Of a DNA stretch of 64,000 bases, positions 17,185 through 52,029 are shown in pieces (the stretch's first letter is position 1; each line of letters starts with the position of its first letter). Under the pieces are notes generated by a model, which was not told the origin of the DNA, did not search any database, and worked only from the letters and a program-made list of their open reading frames with translations. Position numbers and translations under genes: made by a program. The DNA comes from Candidatus Hecatella orcuttiae (GTDB lineage Archaea; Thermoproteota; Bathyarchaeia; Hecatellales; Hecatellaceae): positions 160,001-224,000 of the forward strand of contig MTLY02000003.1 of NCBI GenBank assembly GCA_002011035.2, read 5' to 3'.

Positions 17185-17274
17185 TGGAGCCCCGGGAGGG
17201 ATTCGAACCCTCGACCTTCCGCTGTCCCTCCTCCGCTACGAGGCGGACGCTCTGACCGGCTGAGCTATCGGGGC
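17185..17274 (-). tRNA. tRNA-Thr(CGT) with 13-nt intron (17224-17236) at 37/38; CCA encoded
   Basis: Reverse complement: GCCCCGA TA GCTC..GAGC G TCCGC CT CGT A [GCGGAGGAGGGAC] A GCGGA AGGTC GAGGG TTCGAAT CCCTC CCGGGGC T CCA; U73 discriminator. Confidence 0.9.
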
Positions 17275-30692: not shown

Positions 30693-30814
30693 GGTCTAGA
30701 CGACCTAACTAAAAAAGCATGACTGCGGAAAGGTTAACCCAGCTTCTTGCCATAAGTAATAAGAGAGACGGCTTCCTATAAAATAAGGGGCCCCGCTTCT
30801 CCGGAAGATGAACC

Positions 30815-31243
30815 ATGTTTGTCCCCTGCGAGCTTGCCGTGAAATCAATCCTGCCGGCCTTCCGCGCCTTGGTGGCGGAGAAACTCGTCGGCGTCTACGG
30901 GCTGAAGCAAGGGGAAGCAGCCCGGCTTTTGGGCATCACCCAGTCCGCTGTCAGCCGCTATGTTAAAAACGAAAGAGGCAGCGTTCTTAAATCCAAAATC
31001 TCGCGGCTGGAAGAGGTTAATACCTTGATGGAAGAAGTGGCGGAAAAACTCATCGACGGTAAGACAGACCTCCACGAGATAAGCCGCCTATTCTGCCGGG
31101 GCTGTCAGAGGGTGAGGACTATGGGGTTGCTGTGCGAAAACTGTAAGAGGTTTAACCCTCAACTTGACGAGAACTGCGACCTCTGCACTTGGCACAAGAC
31201 TCGTGGGGGCTCAGAGACTGTGGAAGGCTGTTTCCCGCTCTGA
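30815..31243 (+). CDS. HTH transcriptional regulator (COG2522-like) with Cys-rich C-terminus
   Basis: PCE...LP..RA..A, Q.EAARLLGITQSAVSRY...RG; C..C...C..C...C..C. Confidence 0.85.
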   Translation: MFVPCELAVKSILPAFRALVAEKLVGVYGLKQGEAARLLGITQSAVSRYVKNERGSVLKSKISRLEEVNTLMEEVAEKLIDGKTDLHEISRLFCRGCQRVRTMGLLCENCKRFNPQLDENCDLCTWHKTRGGSETVEGCFPL

Positions 31244-31378
31244 AACTTCCAGGCCCTAAACCTGTTACCTTCCTCGTCATGTTTCAGCCGATGCATTTTG
31301 GGCTGTAAACAGAATGGAAAATCGACGGGGGAATGCTGGAAAAAGTACTTATGAGTTCCCAGCCATAATTCTGCCGGT

Positions 31379-32305
31379 GTGAAAAAAATGGGAATCCTGA
31401 AGGTAGCTTTGCCCAAAGGTCATCTTTGGAGCGGAGTGAAAAGCCTCCTCGACCGAGCGGGATACGGGTTGCGGGTGGAGAGCGAACGCTCCTACTCAGT
31501 GAACTCCAACGACCCCGAGCTTGAACTCCGAATCCACCGGGCTCAGAACATCAGTCCCCTAGTTGAGGAGGGAAAGTACGACCTAGGCATCACAGGACTG
31601 GACTGGGTGGTGGAGCACAGGGCGGATGTAGAGGAGCTGGCCGACTTGGAGTTTGGGAGAGTAAACGTGGTCGCTGCTGTGCCCCAACACTACGGCCTTG
31701 AAGAGTCTTCCGAGGGGGAGAAAGTGTTCGAAAGATTCGTGGCGAAGCTGCGGAGGGAGGGAAAAGAAAAGATCATCGTTGCCTCCGAATACGAGAACAT
31801 CACCCGAAGCCTGTGTGAGGAGAAGATGGGCTCCGTCCCATACAAGTTCATCCGCTCCTACGGGGCTACGGAAACCTTCATCGGAGTCGCCGATCTCATC
31901 GTTGACTGCACCGAGACAGGGACTACCCTCAGGGACAACGGCTGGCAGATCATCCACAGGCTTTTCACCTCCACCGCCCGGCTGATCGCTAACAGGCAAA
32001 GCTTGAAGGACCGGTGGAAAAAGGATAAAATAGAAAGCTTCCTGCAGCTGGTCGCGGGAGCGCGAGATGCGAAGGGGCTGAAGCTCATCAAGCTGAATGT
32101 GGCCGCGGAAGCCCTGAAAGACGTGTTAGGCGTCCTCCCCTCCATGAAAAGCCCCACCATCTCCCAGCTGGCCGGAGATGGGAAGCCAGGATTCGCTGTG
32201 GAGGTGGCGGTGAAAGAAAACCAAGTGGTGCAACTGATTCCCCTGTTGAAGAAGAAGGGCGCGACGGATATTCTGGAAATAGACATCGATAAAGTCATCC
32301 GGTAA
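31379..32305 (+). CDS. hisG: ATP phosphoribosyltransferase (long form)
   Basis: ALPKG, DLGITGLD, SYGATE, D.TETGTTL motifs plus C-terminal regulatory domain (PSMKSPTIS, GATDIL). Confidence 0.93.
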   Translation: MKKMGILKVALPKGHLWSGVKSLLDRAGYGLRVESERSYSVNSNDPELELRIHRAQNISPLVEEGKYDLGITGLDWVVEHRADVEELADLEFGRVNVVAAVPQHYGLEESSEGEKVFERFVAKLRREGKEKIIVASEYENITRSLCEEKMGSVPYKFIRSYGATETFIGVADLIVDCTETGTTLRDNGWQIIHRLFTSTARLIANRQSLKDRWKKDKIESFLQLVAGARDAKGLKLIKLNVAAEALKDVLGVLPSMKSPTISQLAGDGKPGFAVEVAVKENQVVQLIPLLKKKGATDILEIDIDKVIR

Positions 32306-32359
32306 GTTGGACTTGCGTCCGTCGAAGATGCGGGGAGCATTCTGGAGGAGAGAAGTATT

Positions 32360-32743
32360 TTGATCGTAGGAATAGGGGTAGACCTGATAAAAATTCAAAG
32401 GATCAAGGAGGCTCTGGACAGGTCGGGTATGCGTTTCTTGGAAAAAGTTTTCACCCCCAAAGAGATAGAGCTGGCTTCCAAGGGCGAGGATAGAGCAGCC
32501 TATTTTGCGACCAGGTTCGCCGCTAAGGAAAGCGTACTCAAAGCCTTCTGCACAGGGTGGGCCGGCGTTAAAGGCACAGACATTCACATAGAACCGGGGG
32601 CTCGAGGGGAGCCTTTGGTAAAACTTTCAGGCGGACTGGCTGAAATGGCCTCTCAGAGAGGAGTCACCCGAGTTCTCGTAAGCCTCTCTTATGACTCCGA
32701 ATATGCCATTGCCATGTGCATTCTACTCGGCAGCCGGCCTTAA
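32360..32743 (+). CDS. acpS: holo-ACP synthase (4'-phosphopantetheinyl transferase)
   Basis: GIGVD....RI, F.EKVFT..E, RFAAKES.LKA..TG, GEP and VSLSY motifs. Confidence 0.92.
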   Translation: MIVGIGVDLIKIQRIKEALDRSGMRFLEKVFTPKEIELASKGEDRAAYFATRFAAKESVLKAFCTGWAGVKGTDIHIEPGARGEPLVKLSGGLAEMASQRGVTRVLVSLSYDSEYAIAMCILLGSRP

Positions 32744-32759
32744 CTGGGAAACTTTGCGG

Positions 32760-33977
32760 TCAGATTTTCTTTACCTTCTCCGCAATCTCCATGGTGTCGA
32801 GGGCTATCATTTTTTCCTCGTCGGTGGGAACTACGAGAACTTTCACCTTCGAATCAGGGCTGCTGATGACCCCCTCAGCCTTAACTGTTTTCACGTTCGC
32901 CTCCCCGTCCAGCTTAACTCCTAGGAACTCAAGGTTCTCACAGATCATTCCTCTCATCAAAGGGGAGTTCTCCCCAATGCCAGCTGTGAAAACAAGCACG
33001 TCAAGGCCTCCCATAGCCGCCGCGTAGGCGCCTATGTACTTTTTCACCCGGTAGGCGTACATTTCCAAGGCCAGCTTACACCGAGAGTTCCCAGCCTCCG
33101 CTCCTTTGATCACTTCCCTCATGTCATTGCTAACACCGGACACCCCCAGAAGGCCGCTTTTCTTGTTCAGAATCTTGTCCAGCTCCTCTACGCTCAGGTT
33201 TGCCCTCCTGTGGAGGTAGAAGATGACTCCGGGGTCTATGTCCCCGCACCTAGTTCCCATGATAAGCCCCTCCAAGGGGGTTAAGCCCATGCTGGTGTCT
33301 ACAGACTTTCCCCCCTGCACAGCGTTTAACGTAACCCCGTTGCCCAGATGGCAGATGATCATCTTCAACCGGTCTGAGGAGCTTCCCAGCATCTCCTCCG
33401 CCTTCTTCGACACGTACCGGCAAGAGGTTCCGTGAAACCCGTATTTTCTGACCCCGTACTGGATGTAAAACTCTCGGGGAACCGCGTACATGTAAGCCTT
33501 CTCCGGCATGGTCTGATGGAAAGCCGTGTCGAACACAGCTACATGGGGAACTTCAGGAAGCTGCTTTTTAGCCTCCGTGATCCCTGCGAGGTTTGCGGGA
33601 TTGTGAAGAGGCGCCAGAGGAATGCATTCCCTAATCTTTTCCTGAACCTCCGGAGTGATGAGGGCTGGCTCGGTGAAGGCGGCGCCTCCGTGCACAACCC
33701 TATGCCCCACGGCTGCTATTTCTCGAAGGTCTTTGATGACTCCGTGCTCCTCATCCAGCATGGCTTTCATAACCAAAGAGAGGCCTTCGCTGTGATTGGG
33801 GATAACTGCTTCTCTTCTAGTCTTTTTCCCTCCTGTTTCATGCTCGATGTAGGAGCCCGGCTCACCTATCTTAGCAACAGTTCCCTTGGCTATTACTTCA
33901 TCTTTTTCCATGTCCCGAAGCTGATATTTGATGGAGGAGCTTCCGCAGTTAAGGACGAGAACTTTCACCCAATCCAC
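32760..33977 (-). CDS. ackA: acetate kinase
   Basis: [52 protein letters not shown] and PTDEE motifs. Confidence 0.97.
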
Positions 33978-34999
33978 CTCTGCGCTTGCACAACCAGCAT
34001 GGCTATAGTGCCGGCGATATCCTCAGCCGACGCTCCCCGGGAAAGGTCGCTCACCGGCTTGGCGAACCCTTGGAGAATGGGGCCGTAGGCTTCTGCCTTC
34101 GCCAGCCGCTCAGTGAGCTTATAGGCTATGTTTCCTGCGTCCAAGTTGGGGAAGATGAGAACGTTGGCCCTCCCTCCTAACGGGTTGTCCCCCTTGATCT
34201 TCTTTCTCGCCACCTCCGGCACCAAGGCAGCGTCAGCTTGAAGCTCTCCGTCGACCAGCAACCTGGGAGCCTTTGTTTTCACGAGGTTAACGGCCTCCAC
34301 CACTTTATCCACCAGAGGGTGGGTGGCGCTTCCTTTGGTTGAAAACGAAAGCATCGCCACCCGCGGTTCCCAGCCTAACATAGTCCTTGCACTGTTGGCA
34401 CTGGCAAGGGCGATGTCGGCTAACTCCTCGGGGTTGGGGTCGATGTTCACCGAAGCGTCGGCATAGAGCAGAGCTCCCTTCTCACCGCCCTCGTAGCCAG
34501 GGACAACCATCAGAAAGAAGCTTGACGGAGCGCATATCCCCTCCTGCAAGCCGATGATCAGCTTCGCAGCGGCGATAACCTCCCCGGAAGAGTAGGTCGC
34601 CCCTGCCACCATGCCCTCCGCGTCTCCCGCTTTCACCATCATGCAGGCGAAGTTGAGGGGCTTTCTGAGGAGCGCCCGGGCCAGCCTATCGGAGGAGCCG
34701 CTTGCCTTGCTGTAGAGGGCTATGTACTCCTCCAGTTTAGGCCAAGATTCAGGTTTGGCGAATTCGACTTTCTTTAAGCTGACACCCAGCCTTTGTGCTT
34801 TTTCTTCAATTTCTTCTCTGTCTCCCACAAGAAACGGCTTAGCCACGTTTTCCTTCACAGCTATCTCAGCCGCTCGGAGAATTCGTTCATCCTCAGGTTC
34901 GGGGAGAACTATTCTTTTGGGGTTGAGAGCAGCCTTTCTTTTAAACTCCTCGATAACCTTGGGCATGCAGGTTTTCGCCTCTTTTAAAACAAGCTTCAC
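33965..34999 (-). CDS. pta: phosphate acetyltransferase
   Basis: [44 protein letters not shown] and DLSRG motifs. Confidence 0.96.
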
Positions 35000-35394
35000 T
35001 TGACTTTGAAGGTGAGGATGTCCAGTCCGGCGAATTTCTTTATCTCCGCTTTCACATCCATAGGAAGCCTATCCAAGGCTTCCCTGATCTTAGTGGGATT
35101 GGATACGTCTATTCCGGTGATCATAGTCATGAAGGTGGGGCCTTCCTTGAATTTCACAAGGCCGTAGGCGTAGGGGGCGTAGTCTTGAAATTCCATGGGA
35201 GTCGGTATGGCGCTGCTGGCGAAGATTATAAGCTTCCCCTCTCCACTAAACTCCGTCCAATCCAGTTCACGGCTTGAGCATTTTTGACAGATGGGATAAG
35301 GTGGAAAGATGTACACGCCGCATTTTTTGCATTTGAAGCCCATGATTTTCCCTTCGGCCAGAAAGTCGAAAAACTTCTTCATCACCGTCATCAA
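34996..35394 (-). CDS. DUF35 Zn-ribbon/OB-fold protein
   Basis: CKKCG..IFPP..ICQKC zinc ribbon, then G.G.L and [14 protein letters not shown]-fold; directly after the thiolase. Confidence 0.92.
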
Positions 35395-35397
35395 AAT

Positions 35398-36666
35398 TCA
35401 CCTCCTCCTCAACACTGTAACCGTCGCTTCAACTCCTATTCCACAGGCATGCCAGAGGGCGGTTTCAGGCTCAGGCTTGATCTGCCTCTCTCCAGCTTGA
35501 CCTCTCATCTGTTTTACGATCTCGTACAAATCCGCGCCGCATGTTGCAGCGTAGGCGTTACCGAAGCCCAAGTGGCCTCCGTTGGTATTCATAGGTCTCT
35601 CACCGTTAAAGGATATCCTCTGGTCGCGGAAGGCCTTCCACGCTTGCCCTCTCTCAAAATAGCCAACTCCCTCAGGGAAGACGAAATACTCGCTCACCGA
35701 GCAGTCTCCGACCTGCAGGTAATCGATGTCCTTCGGCTCCACCCCTGCCATCTGGTAGGCGTTTCGGGCAGCTATCATCTCCACAGGCCACTCGTAGGGG
35801 TCTTTCTCGTAGAACGGATAGGGGTCGGTGCACCAGCCGAAGCCCAGAATATCCACCGGTGTGTCGGTGTATTTCTTCGCCTTCTCAGGTGTTGTGACGA
35901 TGTAAGCCGAGGCGCCGTCGGCGATGGGGGGAATGCAGCAAGCTCTCAGAGGATATGCCAGATAAGGGTTAAACTTGGATTTGTACCATTCTTTCACATC
36001 CTTGAAGCCCCGCCTAGCCGCTTGGTCCTTCAGCTCAGTTTGATGGTATGCCTTAGGGTTTCTGGAACTCGCCCTGCGAGCGTTAACGGCAATGCCGAAG
36101 AGGGCGTCTTCCACATCATCCATGGACAGCCCGTATTTCTTGGCGTAGGCGATAATCGGAATAGCCTCGAACATGGCGCTTACATCATAGGCGTGGGTCC
36201 AGTAATATTCTTGGTCCCCTCCCCACTCAGTCCACTCTAACACTTTACCTAGGTCTGCGGGCTTTCGGACAGTGGGGTTGAACGTGGGTGTGCTGCTCAA
36301 AATCTCGCAGGCAACAATCAAGACGGTATCATAGACTCCTGAAGCAATGGCCATGGCCGCCAATCCTGCTCCCGTGTTGGTGGTTGCGCAGCCTGTTGCG
36401 AAATGCAAAGCCGGCTTATACTTCATGCCGATCCAGTTGGCAACGCGGAAGGGTGAATGCGCATGAGTAGTGTTGGGGAGGTAGTGGCCGAAGAAGAAGG
36501 CGTCTATTTCCTTAGGGTCGATTCCAGCATCATCGTAGGCTTCGAAGGCAGCTTCGGAGACTAGGTCTTGGAAGCTTTTGTCTTTGAGCTCCGAGGTCTC
36601 CAGCACGCTTCCAAAACGCGTCACGCCAACCCCGATGATGGAGGCCTTACTTTTTAAAACACCCAT
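35398..36666 (-). CDS. thiolase-family protein (SCP2/archaeal type) with atypical catalytic motifs
   Basis: IIGVG.T.FG, GCAT (Cys93), NPKA, DGASA, AY.MAG..P.DID, N..GG and Q.RG.AG.RQ motifs. Confidence 0.9.
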   Translation of the reverse strand: MGVLKSKASIIGVGVTRFGSVLETSELKDKSFQDLVSEAAFEAYDDAGIDPKEIDAFFFGHYLPNTTHAHSPFRVANWIGMKYKPALHFATGCATTNTGAGLAAMAIASGVYDTVLIVACEILSSTPTFNPTVRKPADLGKVLEWTEWGGDQEYYWTHAYDVSAMFEAIPIIAYAKKYGLSMDDVEDALFGIAVNARRASSRNPKAYHQTELKDQAARRGFKDVKEWYKSKFNPYLAYPLRACCIPPIADGASAYIVTTPEKAKKYTDTPVDILGFGWCTDPYPFYEKDPYEWPVEMIAARNAYQMAGVEPKDIDYLQVGDCSVSEYFVFPEGVGYFERGQAWKAFRDQRISFNGERPMNTNGGHLGFGNAYAATCGADLYEIVKQMRGQAGERQIKPEPETALWHACGIGVEATVTVLRRR

Positions 36667-36708
36667 CTTTCTTCACCTTTCCAGTATTCGTATCTTTTTC
36701 CTTTCATA

Positions 36709-36951
36709 TTATTGTTTCTCCGCCAGTTTCTTCTCAATGTAGCTTACAGCCTCTCCTATTGTCTTGTTTTTCCGCGCCTCGACAAACGGTATGGTGATGT
36801 TAAACTCGTATTCCAGAAGAGCTATCAACTCGATGATGTTCACAGACTTCGCGTGAAGGTCTTCGACGAAGCGAAGGTTGTCAGCTAGTTCCTCAGGGTT
36901 TTTTCCGAAAACATCGGCGATTATTTCTTTAACTTTCTTTTCCACAGACAT
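36709..36951 (-). CDS. acpP: acyl carrier protein
   Basis: 80 aa: VKEIIA...FVEDLHAKSVNIIELIALLEYEFNITIP...TIGEAVSYI. Ser36 sits at the phosphopantetheine position. Confidence 0.88.
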   Translation of the reverse strand: MSVEKKVKEIIADVFGKNPEELADNLRFVEDLHAKSVNIIELIALLEYEFNITIPFVEARKNKTIGEAVSYIEKKLAEKQ

Positions 36952-37138
36952 CCTTCATCCCTCTACACTACCCTGCTTTGCGGTTTTAAATGTTTCCCAA
37001 AAACCCATCCTCATCTTCAGCTAAAGCTTCAAATGGAAAATGTTCAGCCCACAAACTACGCAGTTTTCATTCGCAGGTTAAACTTTATTATTCCCTCGGA
37101 ATCTTTCTTTAAGAAATGTTGAGAAGGAGAGTGGTGCT

Positions 37139-37687
37139 ATGATGCAGACAACGGAGGAAAACCTGAAAAACGCCTTCGCAGGAGAATGTCAGGCTCGAGT
37201 GAGGTATCTTATCTTTGCCGATGTGGCCAGACGAGAGGGTTTCCCCAACGTGGCTAGGCTGTTCACCGCCATCTCAGAAGCGGAGCAGATACATGCCAAT
37301 CACCACTACCGGCTGCTGGGCGGCCTCAACGGAGGCTTCACCACAGTGGCCAAGGGAACCTTCGGCCCGGGAGAGACGAGCAAAAATCTGAGCCTCTGCA
37401 TAATGGGCGAAACCTACGAGATTGAGGAAATGTACCCTGCCTTCAGAGCTGTGGCTGAATTGCAGGGAGAGAGAGCAGCCTTCACCAGCTTCGACTGGGC
37501 GTATCAAACGGAAAAAGTTCACGCTGAACTTTACAAAAAGGCGAAAAAAGCCGTGGACGCTGGGAAAGATGTGGAGTTAGGGACCATTCAAATATGCCAA
37601 GTCTGCGGATACACACTGGAGGGGGAAGCCCCTGACAAGTGTCCCGTGTGCAGGGCCGGCCGAGAGGCGTTTAAAGCCTTTCAATAA
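37139..37687 (+). CDS. rbr: rubrerythrin
   Basis: AFAGE.QA..RY, E..HA, ETYE..MY and E.VH motifs; C-terminal rubredoxin domain CQVCG...CPVC. Confidence 0.93.
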   Translation: MMQTTEENLKNAFAGECQARVRYLIFADVARREGFPNVARLFTAISEAEQIHANHHYRLLGGLNGGFTTVAKGTFGPGETSKNLSLCIMGETYEIEEMYPAFRAVAELQGERAAFTSFDWAYQTEKVHAELYKKAKKAVDAGKDVELGTIQICQVCGYTLEGEAPDKCPVCRAGREAFKAFQ

Positions 37688-42961: not shown

Positions 42962-43885
42962 TTAGGAGGCGTTTTCTCCGCAGAGGCGGAGGATCCTCTG
43001 CCAGTTTTCGTCGACGATTCGCTGGATCTCCTCCAACAGTGGCTTGTTTTCAGGTTTGAAAAGATGCCTAAACCGGCCTTGCGCCTTTAGGTATTCACTG
43101 ACCGGTATGGGCTTGGGCACTGGGAGGTTGAGCTTGTATTTTCCTTTCTCCACTTCGTAGATGGGGAAATACCTGCTCTGAACAGCCAGCCGAGCCACCG
43201 TCACGCTCTGCGCCATGTCGCTGCGCCATCCCCGTGGGCAGGGAGCGAAGACGTGGATGACCGCAGGGCCCTCTACTTCTAGGGCTTTCCTCACCTTGGT
43301 CATGTAGTCGTTCCAATAGGCCACGGAGGCTGTGGCTGCGTACTCGATTCCATGAGCCACGCAGATGCCTATGAGGTCCTTCTTCAGCTGAAGCTTCCCC
43401 GGGATGACGGAGCCCACCGGCGTGGTGGTCGTCCAAGCGGCTTTGGGTGTGGCTCCCGACCGCTGGATCCCCGTGTTCATGTAGGCTTCGTTGTCGTAGC
43501 AGATGTAGACAAAGTCGTGGCCTCTCTCCAAGGCTCCGGAGAGCGCCTGCAGTCCGATGTCGAAGGTTCCCCCGTCGCCTGAGAAGGCGATGATGTCGGC
43601 TTTTTTGGCTTTTCCTTTTTTCTCCAACACCTTCAAGGCTGCTTCGATGCCGCTGGCCACTGCCGCTGTGTTCTCGAAAGCGGTATGAAGCCATGGAATC
43701 CTCCAAGAAGTGTAGGGGTAGATGGTGGTAGCCACCTCCAAGCAGCCTGTGGACTCGGTGACGATGGTGGGGCCTCGGGCGGCTTTAAGGGCCATCCTAG
43801 CGGCCATGGAGGCTCCGCAGCCAGCGCATAGGCGGTGGCCTGGAGCCAGCGGCTCTTCTTCAGGCAGCTCCTTCAGCTTGACCAT
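42962..43885 (-). CDS. porB: pyruvate:ferredoxin oxidoreductase beta subunit
   Basis: GHRLCAGCG, GDGGTFDIG, DNEAYMNTG.Q and PCPRGW motifs. Confidence 0.93.
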   Translation of the reverse strand: MVKLKELPEEEPLAPGHRLCAGCGASMAARMALKAARGPTIVTESTGCLEVATTIYPYTSWRIPWLHTAFENTAAVASGIEAALKVLEKKGKAKKADIIAFSGDGGTFDIGLQALSGALERGHDFVYICYDNEAYMNTGIQRSGATPKAAWTTTTPVGSVIPGKLQLKKDLIGICVAHGIEYAATASVAYWNDYMTKVRKALEVEGPAVIHVFAPCPRGWRSDMAQSVTVARLAVQSRYFPIYEVEKGKYKLNLPVPKPIPVSEYLKAQGRFRHLFKPENKPLLEEIQRIVDENWQRILRLCGENAS

Positions 43886-45063
43886 TATTCCCTCACCCCC
43901 ACGAAGGCGGTGGGCAGTTCTGTGATTTCCGTTTCAGCCGTCTGCAGTGCCTTCTTTAAAACTTGCTCCAGGTCTGAAGGTGTGATATCCCGGCCTCCTA
44001 GGCCGTAAACGATGCCCCAGACCCTAGGCCTCTGCTTCGCGGCGTAGAAAACAGCCTTAACGTCGCTGCATAGGGGAGCTGAGGGGGCTCCGAAGCTCAG
44101 CGCCCTGTCCAGTACGGCGATGACCTTCAGGTGGCTGGCTTTTTTCAGCAGGTCCTCCGCGGGGAAGGGCCGGTAGAGGCGGAGCTTTATGGCTCCTACT
44201 TTTTTCCCTTCCGCCCGCATCTTATCCACGACCACCCGGGCTGTTCCCGCGGTGCTCCCTGAGCACAGAACCGCGACTTCCGCATCTTCCAAAGCATGGG
44301 TGTGGAGGGCAGCATAGGCTCTCCCAGCAAGTTCGCCGAATTCTTTCCCCACCTTCTCCACTTTGGTGGGGACGCGTTTCATGGCTTCCTCCTGCTGGAC
44401 TTTAAACTCGAAATAGTAGTCGGGAAGGCAAAGGGGACCCACGGTGGAGGGTTTTTCAGGGTCCAGTTTGAAGGCGACTTCCCTTTCCGGCAGAAAACTT
44501 CTCACCTCCTCATCCCCCAAGGTTTCCACTCCTTCCATGCAGTGGGAGACGATGAAGCCGTCTAGGTTGACGGTGATGGGCAGGAGGATTTCAGGGTCTT
44601 CGGCTATCTTGAAAGCTTGAATCACCGAGTCATAGGCCTCTTGAGCGTTTTCGGTGTAGACTTGTATCCACCCGCAATCCCGGGAGCCCATCATGTCCGA
44701 GTGGTCACCGTGGATGTTGATGGGCGCGGAAAGCGCCCTGTTGGCTACCCCCATGACAATGGGGCATCTGAGGCCTGAGGCTGCGTACATCATCTCATGC
44801 ATCAGGGCTAACCCTTGGCTGGCTGTGGCGGTGAAGACCCTAGCCCCCGTAAGGCTGGCTCCTATGCAGGCGGACATGGCTGAGTGCTCAGATTCCACGC
44901 AGATGTACTCCGTGTCCACCTCTCCGTCGGCCACATATTCGCTGAATCTTTCCACGATGACGGTTTGAGGGGTTATGGGGTAAGCGGCCAACACATCCAC
45001 GTCGCACTGCTTGGCAGCGTAGGCCACGGCCTCGTCGCCGGTTAAACCTAGGATTTTCCTCAC
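43885..45063 (-). CDS. porA: pyruvate:ferredoxin oxidoreductase alpha subunit
   Basis: AYPITPQT, ESEHSA, TATASQGL and NRAL motifs; GTG start overlaps the porD stop. Confidence 0.93.
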   Translation of the reverse strand: MRKILGLTGDEAVAYAAKQCDVDVLAAYPITPQTVIVERFSEYVADGEVDTEYICVESEHSAMSACIGASLTGARVFTATASQGLALMHEMMYAASGLRCPIVMGVANRALSAPINIHGDHSDMMGSRDCGWIQVYTENAQEAYDSVIQAFKIAEDPEILLPITVNLDGFIVSHCMEGVETLGDEEVRSFLPEREVAFKLDPEKPSTVGPLCLPDYYFEFKVQQEEAMKRVPTKVEKVGKEFGELAGRAYAALHTHALEDAEVAVLCSGSTAGTARVVVDKMRAEGKKVGAIKLRLYRPFPAEDLLKKASHLKVIAVLDRALSFGAPSAPLCSDVKAVFYAAKQRPRVWGIVYGLGGRDITPSDLEQVLKKALQTAETEITELPTAFVGVRE

Positions 45064-45365
45064 CGGGCTTCCTCCTCCATTCTGATGGCCTTTACAGGAC
45101 ATTCGGTGGCGCAGATTCCGCAGCCCTTACAGTAATCGTAGTCGATTTCCACAAACTTGTCCCTCCGGATGATGGCGGGTTCCGGGCAGTAAATCCAGCA
45201 GATCAGACAGTTGGTGCACTTTTCAGTGTCCACCACCGGTTTGAAAGTCCGCCATTCTCCCGTCTTATATTCTACGGAGGAGCCGGGTTCAGGTATGATG
45301 GCGGCTGCGTGCAAGGTTTTCCACCCCGGTTTTTCTGTTTTGCCGGGTTTCCGTTTTTCACCCAT
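45060..45365 (-). CDS. porD: pyruvate:ferredoxin oxidoreductase delta subunit
   Basis: TGEWRTFKP, CTNCLICWIYCP and YCKGCGICATECP motifs. Confidence 0.93.
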   Translation of the reverse strand: MGEKRKPGKTEKPGWKTLHAAAIIPEPGSSVEYKTGEWRTFKPVVDTEKCTNCLICWIYCPEPAIIRRDKFVEIDYDYCKGCGICATECPVKAIRMEEEAR

Positions 45366-51917: not shown

Positions 51918-52029
51918 GCCGGAGTCGCCTAGCGGTATGGCGCAGGCCTGGAGCCCCCTCTGAGGCTTCTGAAGCCTGAAAGCCTGTGGGCCTTCTGGGC
52001 CCCCGGGGGTTCGAATCCCCCCTCCGGCG
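51918..52029 (+). tRNA. tRNA-Ser(GGA) with 27-nt intron (51954-51980) at 37/38
   Basis: GCCGGAG/CTCCGGC acceptor stem, G73, CAGGC CT GGA G [intron] A GCCTG, long variable arm GGGCC..GGCCC, GGTTCGAATCC. Confidence 0.9.

Follow-up and report, generated by a model that had tools for sequence, protein, structure and literature searches.

The phosphotransacetylase-acetate kinase pair (Pta-AckA) is the textbook fermentative route to ATP and is assumed to work on coenzyme A (CoA) esters; acyl carrier proteins (ACPs) are assumed to be confined to fatty acid and polyketide synthesis and to be nearly absent from archaea. What, then, are the two doing in one gene cassette of an archaeon? The cassette in question lies in a 64,000-nt stretch of DNA from Candidatus Hecatella orcuttiae (Thermoproteota; Bathyarchaeia), called the window here, which corresponds to C3:160001-224000 of a 1.75-Mb genome in three contigs that is 97% complete. 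Besides pta and ackA it holds genes for an ACP, the holo-ACP synthase AcpS, a thiolase-fold enzyme and a DUF35 protein. Our reading, for and against which we hold the evidence to be about evenly balanced, is that the six genes form a self-contained mobile module in which a pathway from acetyl thioester through acetyl phosphate to acetate and ATP would run on a dedicated carrier and not on free CoA. The genes, identified as open reading frames (ORFs) with the family matches shown and with starts that are mechanical calls, are as follows.

32360..32743, plus strand: acpS, holo-ACP synthase (4'-phosphopantetheinyl transferase), 127 aa; PF01648
32760..33977, minus strand: ackA, acetate kinase, 405 aa; PF00871
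33965..34999, minus strand: pta, phosphotransacetylase paralogue, 344 aa; PTA_PTB, TIGR00651
34996..35394, minus strand: DUF35 protein (zinc ribbon and OB fold), 132 aa; PF12172, PF01796
35398..36666, minus strand: thiolase-fold enzyme, 422 aa; PF22691, PF00108
36709..36951, minus strand: acp, small acyl carrier protein, 80 aa; PF00550

Between the acp and thiolase-fold genes there are 42 nt, and between the thiolase-fold and DUF35 genes 3 nt; the pta ORF shares 4 nt with DUF35 at one end and 13 nt with ackA at the other, while acpS is convergent with ackA and ends 16 nt from the ackA stop. The order and spacing given for 32360-36951 in the initial annotation of this DNA match the ORF coordinates exactly. 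The genome has one ACP, one AcpS (the sole PF01648 match) and one Pta, all within the cassette.

By family the cassette Pta is a phosphotransacetylase: it scores 350 bits with PTA_PTB, 318.9 with TIGR00651 (cut-off 311.2) and 340 with NF007233 (cut-off 310), aligns end to end with solved Ptas (267 bits to 6iow, 246 to 1qzt) and, when aligned with 1qzt and 6iow, retains the catalytic SDLSRG and the ED that follows it (S309, R310 and D316 of MtPta, the Methanosarcina thermophila enzyme). It does not group with PlsX, as its match to PF02504 (FA_synthesis; 32.6 bits, cut-off 29.1) is secondary and lies beneath that to PTA_PTB. The CoA site is another matter. As described in the available passages of PMC6461089, the Porphyromonas gingivalis enzyme (PgPta) contacts the 3'-phosphate of acetyl-CoA through Arg89 and Lys92 and the beta-phosphate through Arg135; the arginines are equivalent to MtPta Arg87 and Arg133, replacement of which mainly alters Km. 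In the window Pta the R87 position of MtPta falls inside a three-residue deletion and R133 has become Ala143, and the CoA-nucleotide-binding set as a whole (MtPta R87, R133; PgPta R89, K92, R135) is not retained. The same is true of the thiolase-type cassette Ptas generally, with the Arg87 position deleted and the Arg133 position non-basic in 30/30, and thiolase/DUF35-linked Ptas of Lachnospiraceae and Kofleriaceae also lack the arginines. Both arginines are present in five of five canonical Ptas (E. coli, Acinetobacter, Fusobacterium, Aminobacter, Cereibacter) and in all three solved Ptas.

The ACP is recognized by PF00550 (PP-binding, 35.4 bits, cut-off 20.8) and NF002150 (69.4, cut-off 66). 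Its attachment motif is DLHAKS, with a lysine directly before Ser36. Among cassette ACPs the serine is invariant (29/29) and residue 35, canonically aspartate, is Lys or Arg in 29/30, so that we describe them as a 'K-S' ACP subfamily for which phosphopantetheine attachment at Ser36 is predicted.

A Pta dimer (28-row alignment) was folded with ACP (29-row alignment), together with three controls. The complex scored 0.61 against 0.01 for the best control, the runs agreeing in at least 97% of contacts with a partner pLDDT (predicted local distance difference test) of 88; in the benchmark, scores at this level were obtained for 58 of the 80 solved complexes and for two of the 110 mismatched pairs, figures that are only rough where custom alignments are used. 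The predicted interface comprises ACP residues 36-37, 39-41, 43-45, 47-48 and 56-57 (Ser36 and helix II, residues 36-48) and Pta residues 102-116 and 136-147, with Pta143 contacting ACP36. ACP Ser36 is modelled at the lost-arginine position of Pta, where canonical Ptas hold the CoA phosphates, and in chemical terms the beta-phosphate of CoA has its counterpart in the phosphate of the phosphopantetheine arm borne by ACP. To our knowledge neither a Pta-ACP nor a PlsX-ACP complex has been solved from which the model could have learned the pose, and the predicted complex supports binding of ACP by Pta.

A second archaeal variant, pta-ackA-altGlmU-acp-acpS, emerged from 20 AcpS neighbourhoods taken from the 41 AcpS-bearing genomes among 401 sampled in the window's phylum. 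ACP is present in 18 of these neighbourhoods and pta, ackA, acp and acpS together in 13, with ackA at a contig end in two more; a cassette-type thiolase/DUF35 pair is present in none of the 20. The gene of about 420 aa between ackA and acp is TIGR03991 ('alt_bact_glmU') in 3/3 tested (371-385 bits, cut-off 225) and encodes a nucleotidyltransferase joined to a hexapeptide acyltransferase. Such cassettes (L113:4180-8445, L117:7936-12109, L124:2450-6675; further loci L114-L116, L118, L120, L121, L123, L125, L127, L129) occur in several families of the phylum. As Pta and AckA travel with ACP and AcpS alongside two different third enzymes, the comparison suggests that Pta and ACP together make up the core of both variants.

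The two variants also show a reciprocal swap of charge. In the thiolase type Pta140 is D/E (30/30), Pta143 is non-basic (30/30) and ACP35 is K/R (29/30); in the altGlmU type Pta140 is N/S, Pta143 R/K and ACP35 E/D (13/13 each). A swap of this kind fits, at the level of the alignments, direct Pta-ACP contact in both variants. The initial annotation had a thiolase/DUF35 complex acting on the ACP; the notion of a carrier-dependent unit with no type II fatty acid synthase partner stands, and the lost arginines, the docking and the charge swap now place the linkage at Pta. On sequence and model together we consider it slightly more probable than not that the cassette Pta works on ACP.

The families of three further products are clear. 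AcpS is of the AcpS type, a single domain of 127 aa scoring 61.5 bits with PF01648 (cut-off 25), 83.8 with TIGR00516 (cut-off 59.8) and 98.5 with TIGR00556. The statement in the initial annotation that archaea generally lack the ACP/AcpS system is only roughly true, AcpS (PF01648) being found in 41/401 sampled genomes of the phylum. In five of these genomes (G061, G182, G199, G285, G378) the AcpS domain lies inside unusually long open frames (224-263 aa, roughly double the norm), which may be fusions or upstream read-through. AckA is by sequence an acetate kinase of ordinary type: PF00871 (Acetate_kinase) gives 537 bits and TIGR00016 529 (cut-off 293.4), the butyrate kinase model gives 79.6, below its cut-off of 289, and among solved structures the highest score (510 bits) is to 2iir, the acetate kinase of Thermotoga maritima. 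The DUF35 protein has both the zinc ribbon (PF12172, zf-ChsH2, 33.5 bits, cut-off 23.2) and the OB fold (PF01796, OB_ChsH2_C, 37.0, cut-off 27.1), with CxxC...CxxC at residues 22, 25, 36 and 39 of the translation. DUF35 proteins are the usual scaffold partners of thiolase-fold enzymes, and here the gene lies 3 nt downstream of one. A relative of 615 aa (P0097) has the DUF35 zinc-ribbon domain (PF12172) fused with thiolase domains, and this natural fusion supports the thiolase-DUF35 partnership.

The initial annotation had taken the thiolase-fold enzyme for a standard thiolase, which it does not appear to be. It matches PF22691 (Thiolase_C_1) at 106 bits and PF00108 (Thiolase_N) at 39.5, and reaches 193.7 with NF004720 against a cut-off of 420, whereas the other two thiolases of the genome score 523.6 and 455.7. 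Among solved structures 7yvy is closest (E 1e-39); the match to 6esq has E 1.6e-24 and that to PhlC (5m3k_C), a weak one, E 1.6e-17. Both cysteines, Cys93 (the nucleophile, CxS) and Cys322 (that of HDCF), occur without exception in the family (34/34), but the motifs HDC and GGRHGKGH of most family members are replaced in the window enzyme by GDCS and GGHLGFGN, so that both histidines, that of HDxF and that of GHx, are missing; the His of HD/HS-C is retained by 29 of 34 aligned members and GH likewise by 29/34. GDCS and GN are shared by the window enzyme, the three database proteins nearest to it (P0001-P0003) and two metagenome relatives (L151 and L158), a subgroup whose loop has a new His (GGH), displaced by one residue from where the consensus GGRHGKGH has its first. 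The available passages of PMC12960953 report that in DUF35-associated thiolases the HDxF His is required for Claisen and thiolytic activity (H284A, H294Y), and that PhlC and MucB, which transfer acetyl groups and lack this His, act via an acetylated Cys. Since the HDxF His is absent here as in PhlC/MucB, the window enzyme is, by analogy, more likely an acetyl-transferase than an enzyme forming or cleaving C-C bonds.

The scheme that we envisage is as follows. AcpS would modify Ser36 of apo-ACP to give holo-ACP. The DUF35-held thiolase-fold enzyme would accept an acetyl group at Cys93 and transfer it to the phosphopantetheine thiol of holo-ACP; the donor in the window genome would most simply be acetyl-CoA made by POR, and in relatives that keep the histidines it could be a 3-oxoacyl compound undergoing thiolytic cleavage. 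Pta would bind ACP at its usual CoA-nucleotide site and turn acetyl-ACP and Pi into acetyl phosphate and holo-ACP, and AckA would convert acetyl phosphate to acetate and ATP. The acetyl donor, the direction and the interaction of the thiolase-fold enzyme with ACP are parts of the scheme that we infer. The fuller proposal is that the cassette Pta is an acetyl-ACP:phosphate acetyltransferase, that it serves carrier-based substrate-level phosphorylation or, in reverse, acetate activation, that the cassette moves between DPANN, Asgard, Thermoproteota, bacteria of the candidate phyla radiation (CPR) and other bacterial phyla, and that a sister variant feeds a GlmU-like acetyltransferase; taken as a whole, we place it slightly below an even balance.

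The direction is suggested by the rest of the genome. Two POR-type oxidoreductases are present (one of them in the window at 43885-45102), as is an AMP-forming acetyl-CoA synthetase (Acs); no ADP-forming acetyl-CoA synthetase (ACD) was found in the genome with two domain models, and no 3-oxoacid CoA-transferase was found there. With POR and Acs present but neither ACD nor a further Pta, the cassette is the only recognizable ATP-yielding exit from acetyl thioesters in the genome, and as Acs covers acetate activation the ATP-yielding direction is the one we favour. In a relative of the same family (G002) 11 Succ_CoA_lig and 12 Acs-like matches were counted, as against no ACD domain in the window genome, so that two members of one family differ strikingly in their acyl-CoA metabolism. 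The initial annotation had offered chain building on ACP, acylation of an acceptor and ATP-yielding discharge of acyl-ACP as options; the last of these fits the genome best, given POR and Acs without ACD or a second Pta. It had also suggested looking for fab and HMG-CoA synthase genes elsewhere in the genome, and the outcome is that FabD (PF00698) and KAS I/II (PF00109) have no match in the genome and that HMG-CoA synthase is present on another contig, at C1:228.7-229.9k, where it was matched by NF003274 and missed in the PF01154 search. Two standard archaeal thiolase/DUF35 pairs also lie elsewhere in the genome (those with 523.6 and 455.7 bits to NF004720); together with the HMG-CoA synthase they cover mevalonate synthesis, and therefore the cassette is not the mevalonate entry and its thiolase-fold enzyme not a mevalonate-pathway thiolase. 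A type II fatty acid synthase is ruled out by the absence of KAS and FabD from the genome and by the lack of any conserved in 37 cassette neighbourhoods.

Does the gene set exist elsewhere? A scan of one genome per species gave 493 confirmed thiolase-family relatives, and the counts that follow are for the best 80, with neighbours scored by tblastn with the window proteins within 6 kb of the thiolase gene; many of the contigs end inside the cassette. DUF35 is found in 76/80, Pta in 41/80, ACP in 38/80, AckA in 26/80 and AcpS in 25/80; thiolase, DUF35, ACP and Pta occur together in 31/80 and all six genes in 20/80. The archaeal carriers are Micrarchaeota, two Asgard metagenome-assembled genomes (MAGs) and MAGs labelled Methanosarcinales; the bacterial ones are Minisyncoccia and Saccharibacteria (CPR), Actinomycetota, Chloroflexota, Myxococcota, Bacillota and Pseudomonadota, including a Syntrophomonadaceae and a Devosiaceae MAG, and the cassette is present in genomes of about 1 Mb. 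Gene order varies with lineage and the gene set persists, over at least eight phyla. That the six genes are a functional unit, as first proposed from the sequence, is borne out by this recurrence, and chance adjacency of two operons is excluded by the differing orders in which the set recurs. The description of the cassette as archaeal fared less well, as it is just as common in bacteria (CPR, Chloroflexota, Actinomycetota, Myxococcota) and among 401 genomes of the phylum to which the window belongs the thiolase profile (E <= 1e-90) matches that of the window alone (1/401); in the phylum of a Micrarchaeia carrier it matches 11/201. No ACP was found in 40 nearer relatives of the window genome (0/40).

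Many database proteins are thiolase relatives at 37-78% identity, and those at 62-78% include one named Bathyarchaeia; a 63% thiolase (P0002) and a 65% ACP (P0124), both named Bathyarchaeia and both with 5,436 bp given as longest contig, may share a contig. The two closest relatives are on short metagenome contigs, at 78-80% identity, with the orders acp-thl and thl-duf35-pta and the same unusual motifs. Alphaproteobacterial relatives have thiolase and DUF35 only, with no shared context readable. In a quick tree the window Pta falls in a clade of 20 archaeal and CPR cassette Ptas (SH-aLRT 97) that is sister to ten altGlmU-type Ptas (support 83), and the bacterial cassette Ptas cluster separately from the archaeal/CPR clade. 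From these comparisons the cassette is patchy and has probably been moved horizontally. In the 37 neighbourhoods no further family is present in more than six, the most frequent extra neighbour being a divergent AraC-type regulator (6/37).

Several observations weigh against the carrier-based scheme. The altGlmU-type Ptas, though ACP-linked, keep the arginines (all 13 retain basic residues, with R or K at 143); the arginine loss therefore tracks the link with thiolase and not that with ACP, and judged from the alignments it is not a clean marker for CoA versus ACP. The thiolase-type Ptas form two clusters in the tree with canonical Ptas between them on weak branches, and the arginines may have been lost twice, or the tree may fail to resolve them. 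The complex was folded with custom alignments and the controls contained no canonical Pta; the charge swap amounts to only two or three independent lineages, and ACP residue 35 is outside the model's confident contacts. As to direction, a relative (G001) has neither ACD nor the cassette, which makes the lack of ACD a weak argument when taken by itself. With HDC and GH retained, most members of the thiolase family may, by their motifs, be true thiolases with a 3-oxoacyl substrate, and in the window subgroup the new GGH His might compensate for the lost one. Finally, no gain in energy is apparent from a detour of acetyl-CoA through ACP.

The most probable of the alternatives, although we regard it as unlikely, is an ordinary CoA-dependent Pta/AckA, in which Pta may dock on DUF35/thiolase and share its CoA site as HMG-CoA synthase does in the archaeal complex of the three proteins, ACP and AcpS serving the thiolase in some other way. 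That Pta scores above its equivalog cut-off with its catalytic residues kept would agree with this, as would the finding that arginine loss follows the thiolase/DUF35 link even at loci where tblastn found no ACP (10/41 Pta-bearing), and DUF35 scaffolds do join a second enzyme to the thiolase in the systems described in the available passages of 10.1101/2024.07.05.601840 and PMC12960953. Some of the 'ACP-less' loci do, however, carry an ACP: at L068 (Lachnospiraceae-type) Pfam identifies a divergent 79-aa PP-binding ORF upstream of the thiolase gene, and this ACP family is present at 4/19 loci where tblastn found none. Against it also are the Pta-ACP fold, which passes where the controls give 0.01 and which sets Ser36 on the CoA phosphate site, the Pta/ACP charge swap, and the altGlmU variant, in which Pta and AckA accompany ACP and AcpS where thiolase and DUF35 are absent.

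Rather improbable, in our view, is an anabolic cassette, with AckA and Pta making acetyl-ACP from acetate and thiolase/DUF35 condensing it to acetoacetyl-ACP for chain building (a lipid, polyketide or storage compound). Pta and AckA are reversible enzymes (textbook), most family thiolases retain both Cys and both His, and the altGlmU variant, with its acetyl-consuming LbH acyltransferase between ackA and acp, reads naturally as acetate to acetyl-ACP to acceptor. Thiolase condensation, on the other hand, is strongly uphill unless a partner pulls it (textbook); neither the genome nor the conserved surroundings of the cassette yielded a reductase, dehydratase, KAS or FabD. The HDxF His on which Claisen and thiolytic activity depend is missing from the window enzyme, and for activating acetate the genome already has Acs.

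Less probable still is a C-acetyltransferase like PhlABC/MucABC, in which thiolase-fold/DUF35 would acetylate a small-molecule acceptor with acetyl-ACP made by AckA and Pta. The loss of the HDxF His with the nucleophilic Cys kept, as in PhlC/MucB, and the weak match to PhlC noted above speak for it. These Friedel-Crafts acetyltransferases share with the cassette a DUF35-associated subunit without the HDxF His, as the available passages of PMC12960953 describe. They need an HMGS-like third subunit, keep GHx, use acetyl-CoA and lie in biosynthetic clusters, none of which applies here: there is no third thiolase-superfamily gene in the cassette, the HMG-CoA synthase being on another contig, the window enzyme has GN in place of GHx, and neither a PhlA/HMGS-like subunit nor biosynthetic genes are present in any of the 37 neighbourhoods. 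Carrier genomes of about 1 Mb would in addition make secondary metabolism unlikely.

That a bacterial fragment was mis-assembled or mis-binned into an archaeal genome has a practically negligible probability and is ruled out as far as contigs show: the gene set looks bacterial and is in no other sampled genome of the phylum, but the cassette lies 192 kb into a contig of 731,052 bp, at C3:192,360-196,951, between archaeal genes (those flanking it encode MptA, HisG, an archaeal RpoB and a DHPS-like protein of archaeal type, and the window has probably intron-bearing tRNAs besides), its GC content of 0.53-0.54 is continuous with the 0.50-0.56 of the surroundings, and contigs from other public metagenome runs bridge both cassette junctions, the concern having been raised at the outset, with 0 differences (run X1, a single contig across 28000-41000; run X5, contigs across 30756-34872 and 36234-37621; run X6, with no flag marking it as a possible source, one at 30958-33584 over hisG/acpS/ackA).

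How does the carrier-based module compare with known systems? With the classical Pta-AckA pair (M. thermophila and P. gingivalis Pta; acetate kinases) it shares the families, the catalytic Ser-Arg and Asp and adjacent, overlapping genes, but the cassette pair is embedded with ACP, AcpS and thiolase/DUF35. PlsX, a distant relative of Pta, interconverts acyl-ACP plus Pi and acyl-phosphate plus ACP in bacterial phospholipid synthesis. The chemistry proposed for the cassette Pta is the same; the window protein, however, is a Pta by sequence, its acyl group would be acetyl, and its product would go to a kinase for ATP and not to PlsY. The archaeal thiolase/HMG-CoA synthase/DUF35 complex (6esq/6et9) likewise combines a thiolase-fold enzyme with an adjacent DUF35 protein, but acts on CoA esters with no ACP, whereas the cassette has no HMG-CoA synthase and its thiolase lacks both His. 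Citrate lyase and malonate decarboxylase carry acetyl on a carrier protein of their own, with a different prosthetic group and dedicated loading enzymes; they are similarly catabolic, with carrier-bound acetyl, but have no coupling to Pta/AckA. In the fatty acid synthase complex of Sulfolobus acidocaldarius DUF35 holds a ketothiolase and its partners; the available passages of 10.1101/2024.07.05.601840 describe it as ACP-independent and CoA-based, and the cassette, with which it shares DUF35 and ketothiolase, has ACP and AcpS and lacks the reductase and dehydratase of that complex.

Literature searches (full text, with few subscription journals and no supplements) found no description of an ACP with Pta/AckA and thiolase/DUF35, in agreement with the earlier remark that the gene set is that of no characterized system. 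The families of the individual proteins are all known; what the searches did not turn up is the combination, the arginine-less Pta subfamily, the 'K-S' ACPs and the link of an ACP to an ATP-yielding pathway. If the scheme is true, Pta would have a new substrate specificity, with PlsX-like chemistry on acetyl, and the ACPs of archaea and ultra-small cells a role unrelated to lipids; uncultured anaerobes would have an unrecognized 'acetyl-ACP economy', and 'pta/ackA present' would have to be read differently in reconstructions of Bathyarchaeia, DPANN and CPR (claims of acetogenesis and acetate fermentation). An acetyl-ACP-dependent GlmU-like acetyltransferase, if true, would be new in itself.

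Some of the cassette loci have features of their own. The AraC-family regulator lies divergent just upstream of the thiolase gene at L033:6858-7898 (minus strand) and also at L028, L030, L032, L042 and L052, these six loci being from Chloroflexota, Myxococcota and Devosiaceae, which suggests inducible expression of the cassette there. At L063:178-12699 genes for an MFS transporter, a 2-hydroxyacid dehydrogenase, an OYE/Pyr_redox flavoprotein, a class II aldolase and an FGGY kinase precede, in the gene order, those for thiolase, DUF35, a Pta-like protein and a divergent kinase of the acetate kinase family; L064, L068, L072, L073 and L080 are similar, and some of these gut Lachnospiraceae loci have a small PP-binding ACP just upstream of the thiolase gene. 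This distant variant looks like a catabolic operon for a sugar-type substrate. On an Actinomycetes contig (L029:1-9850) two thiolase-DUF35 pairs of the cassette family flank pta, acp and ackA. Outside the cassette, the window has tRNA genes at 17185-17274 (minus strand) and 51918-52029 (plus strand), which at 87-112 nt are probably intron-bearing; ARAGORN gave the first without an assigned anticodon and missed the second, which was detected by Rfam.

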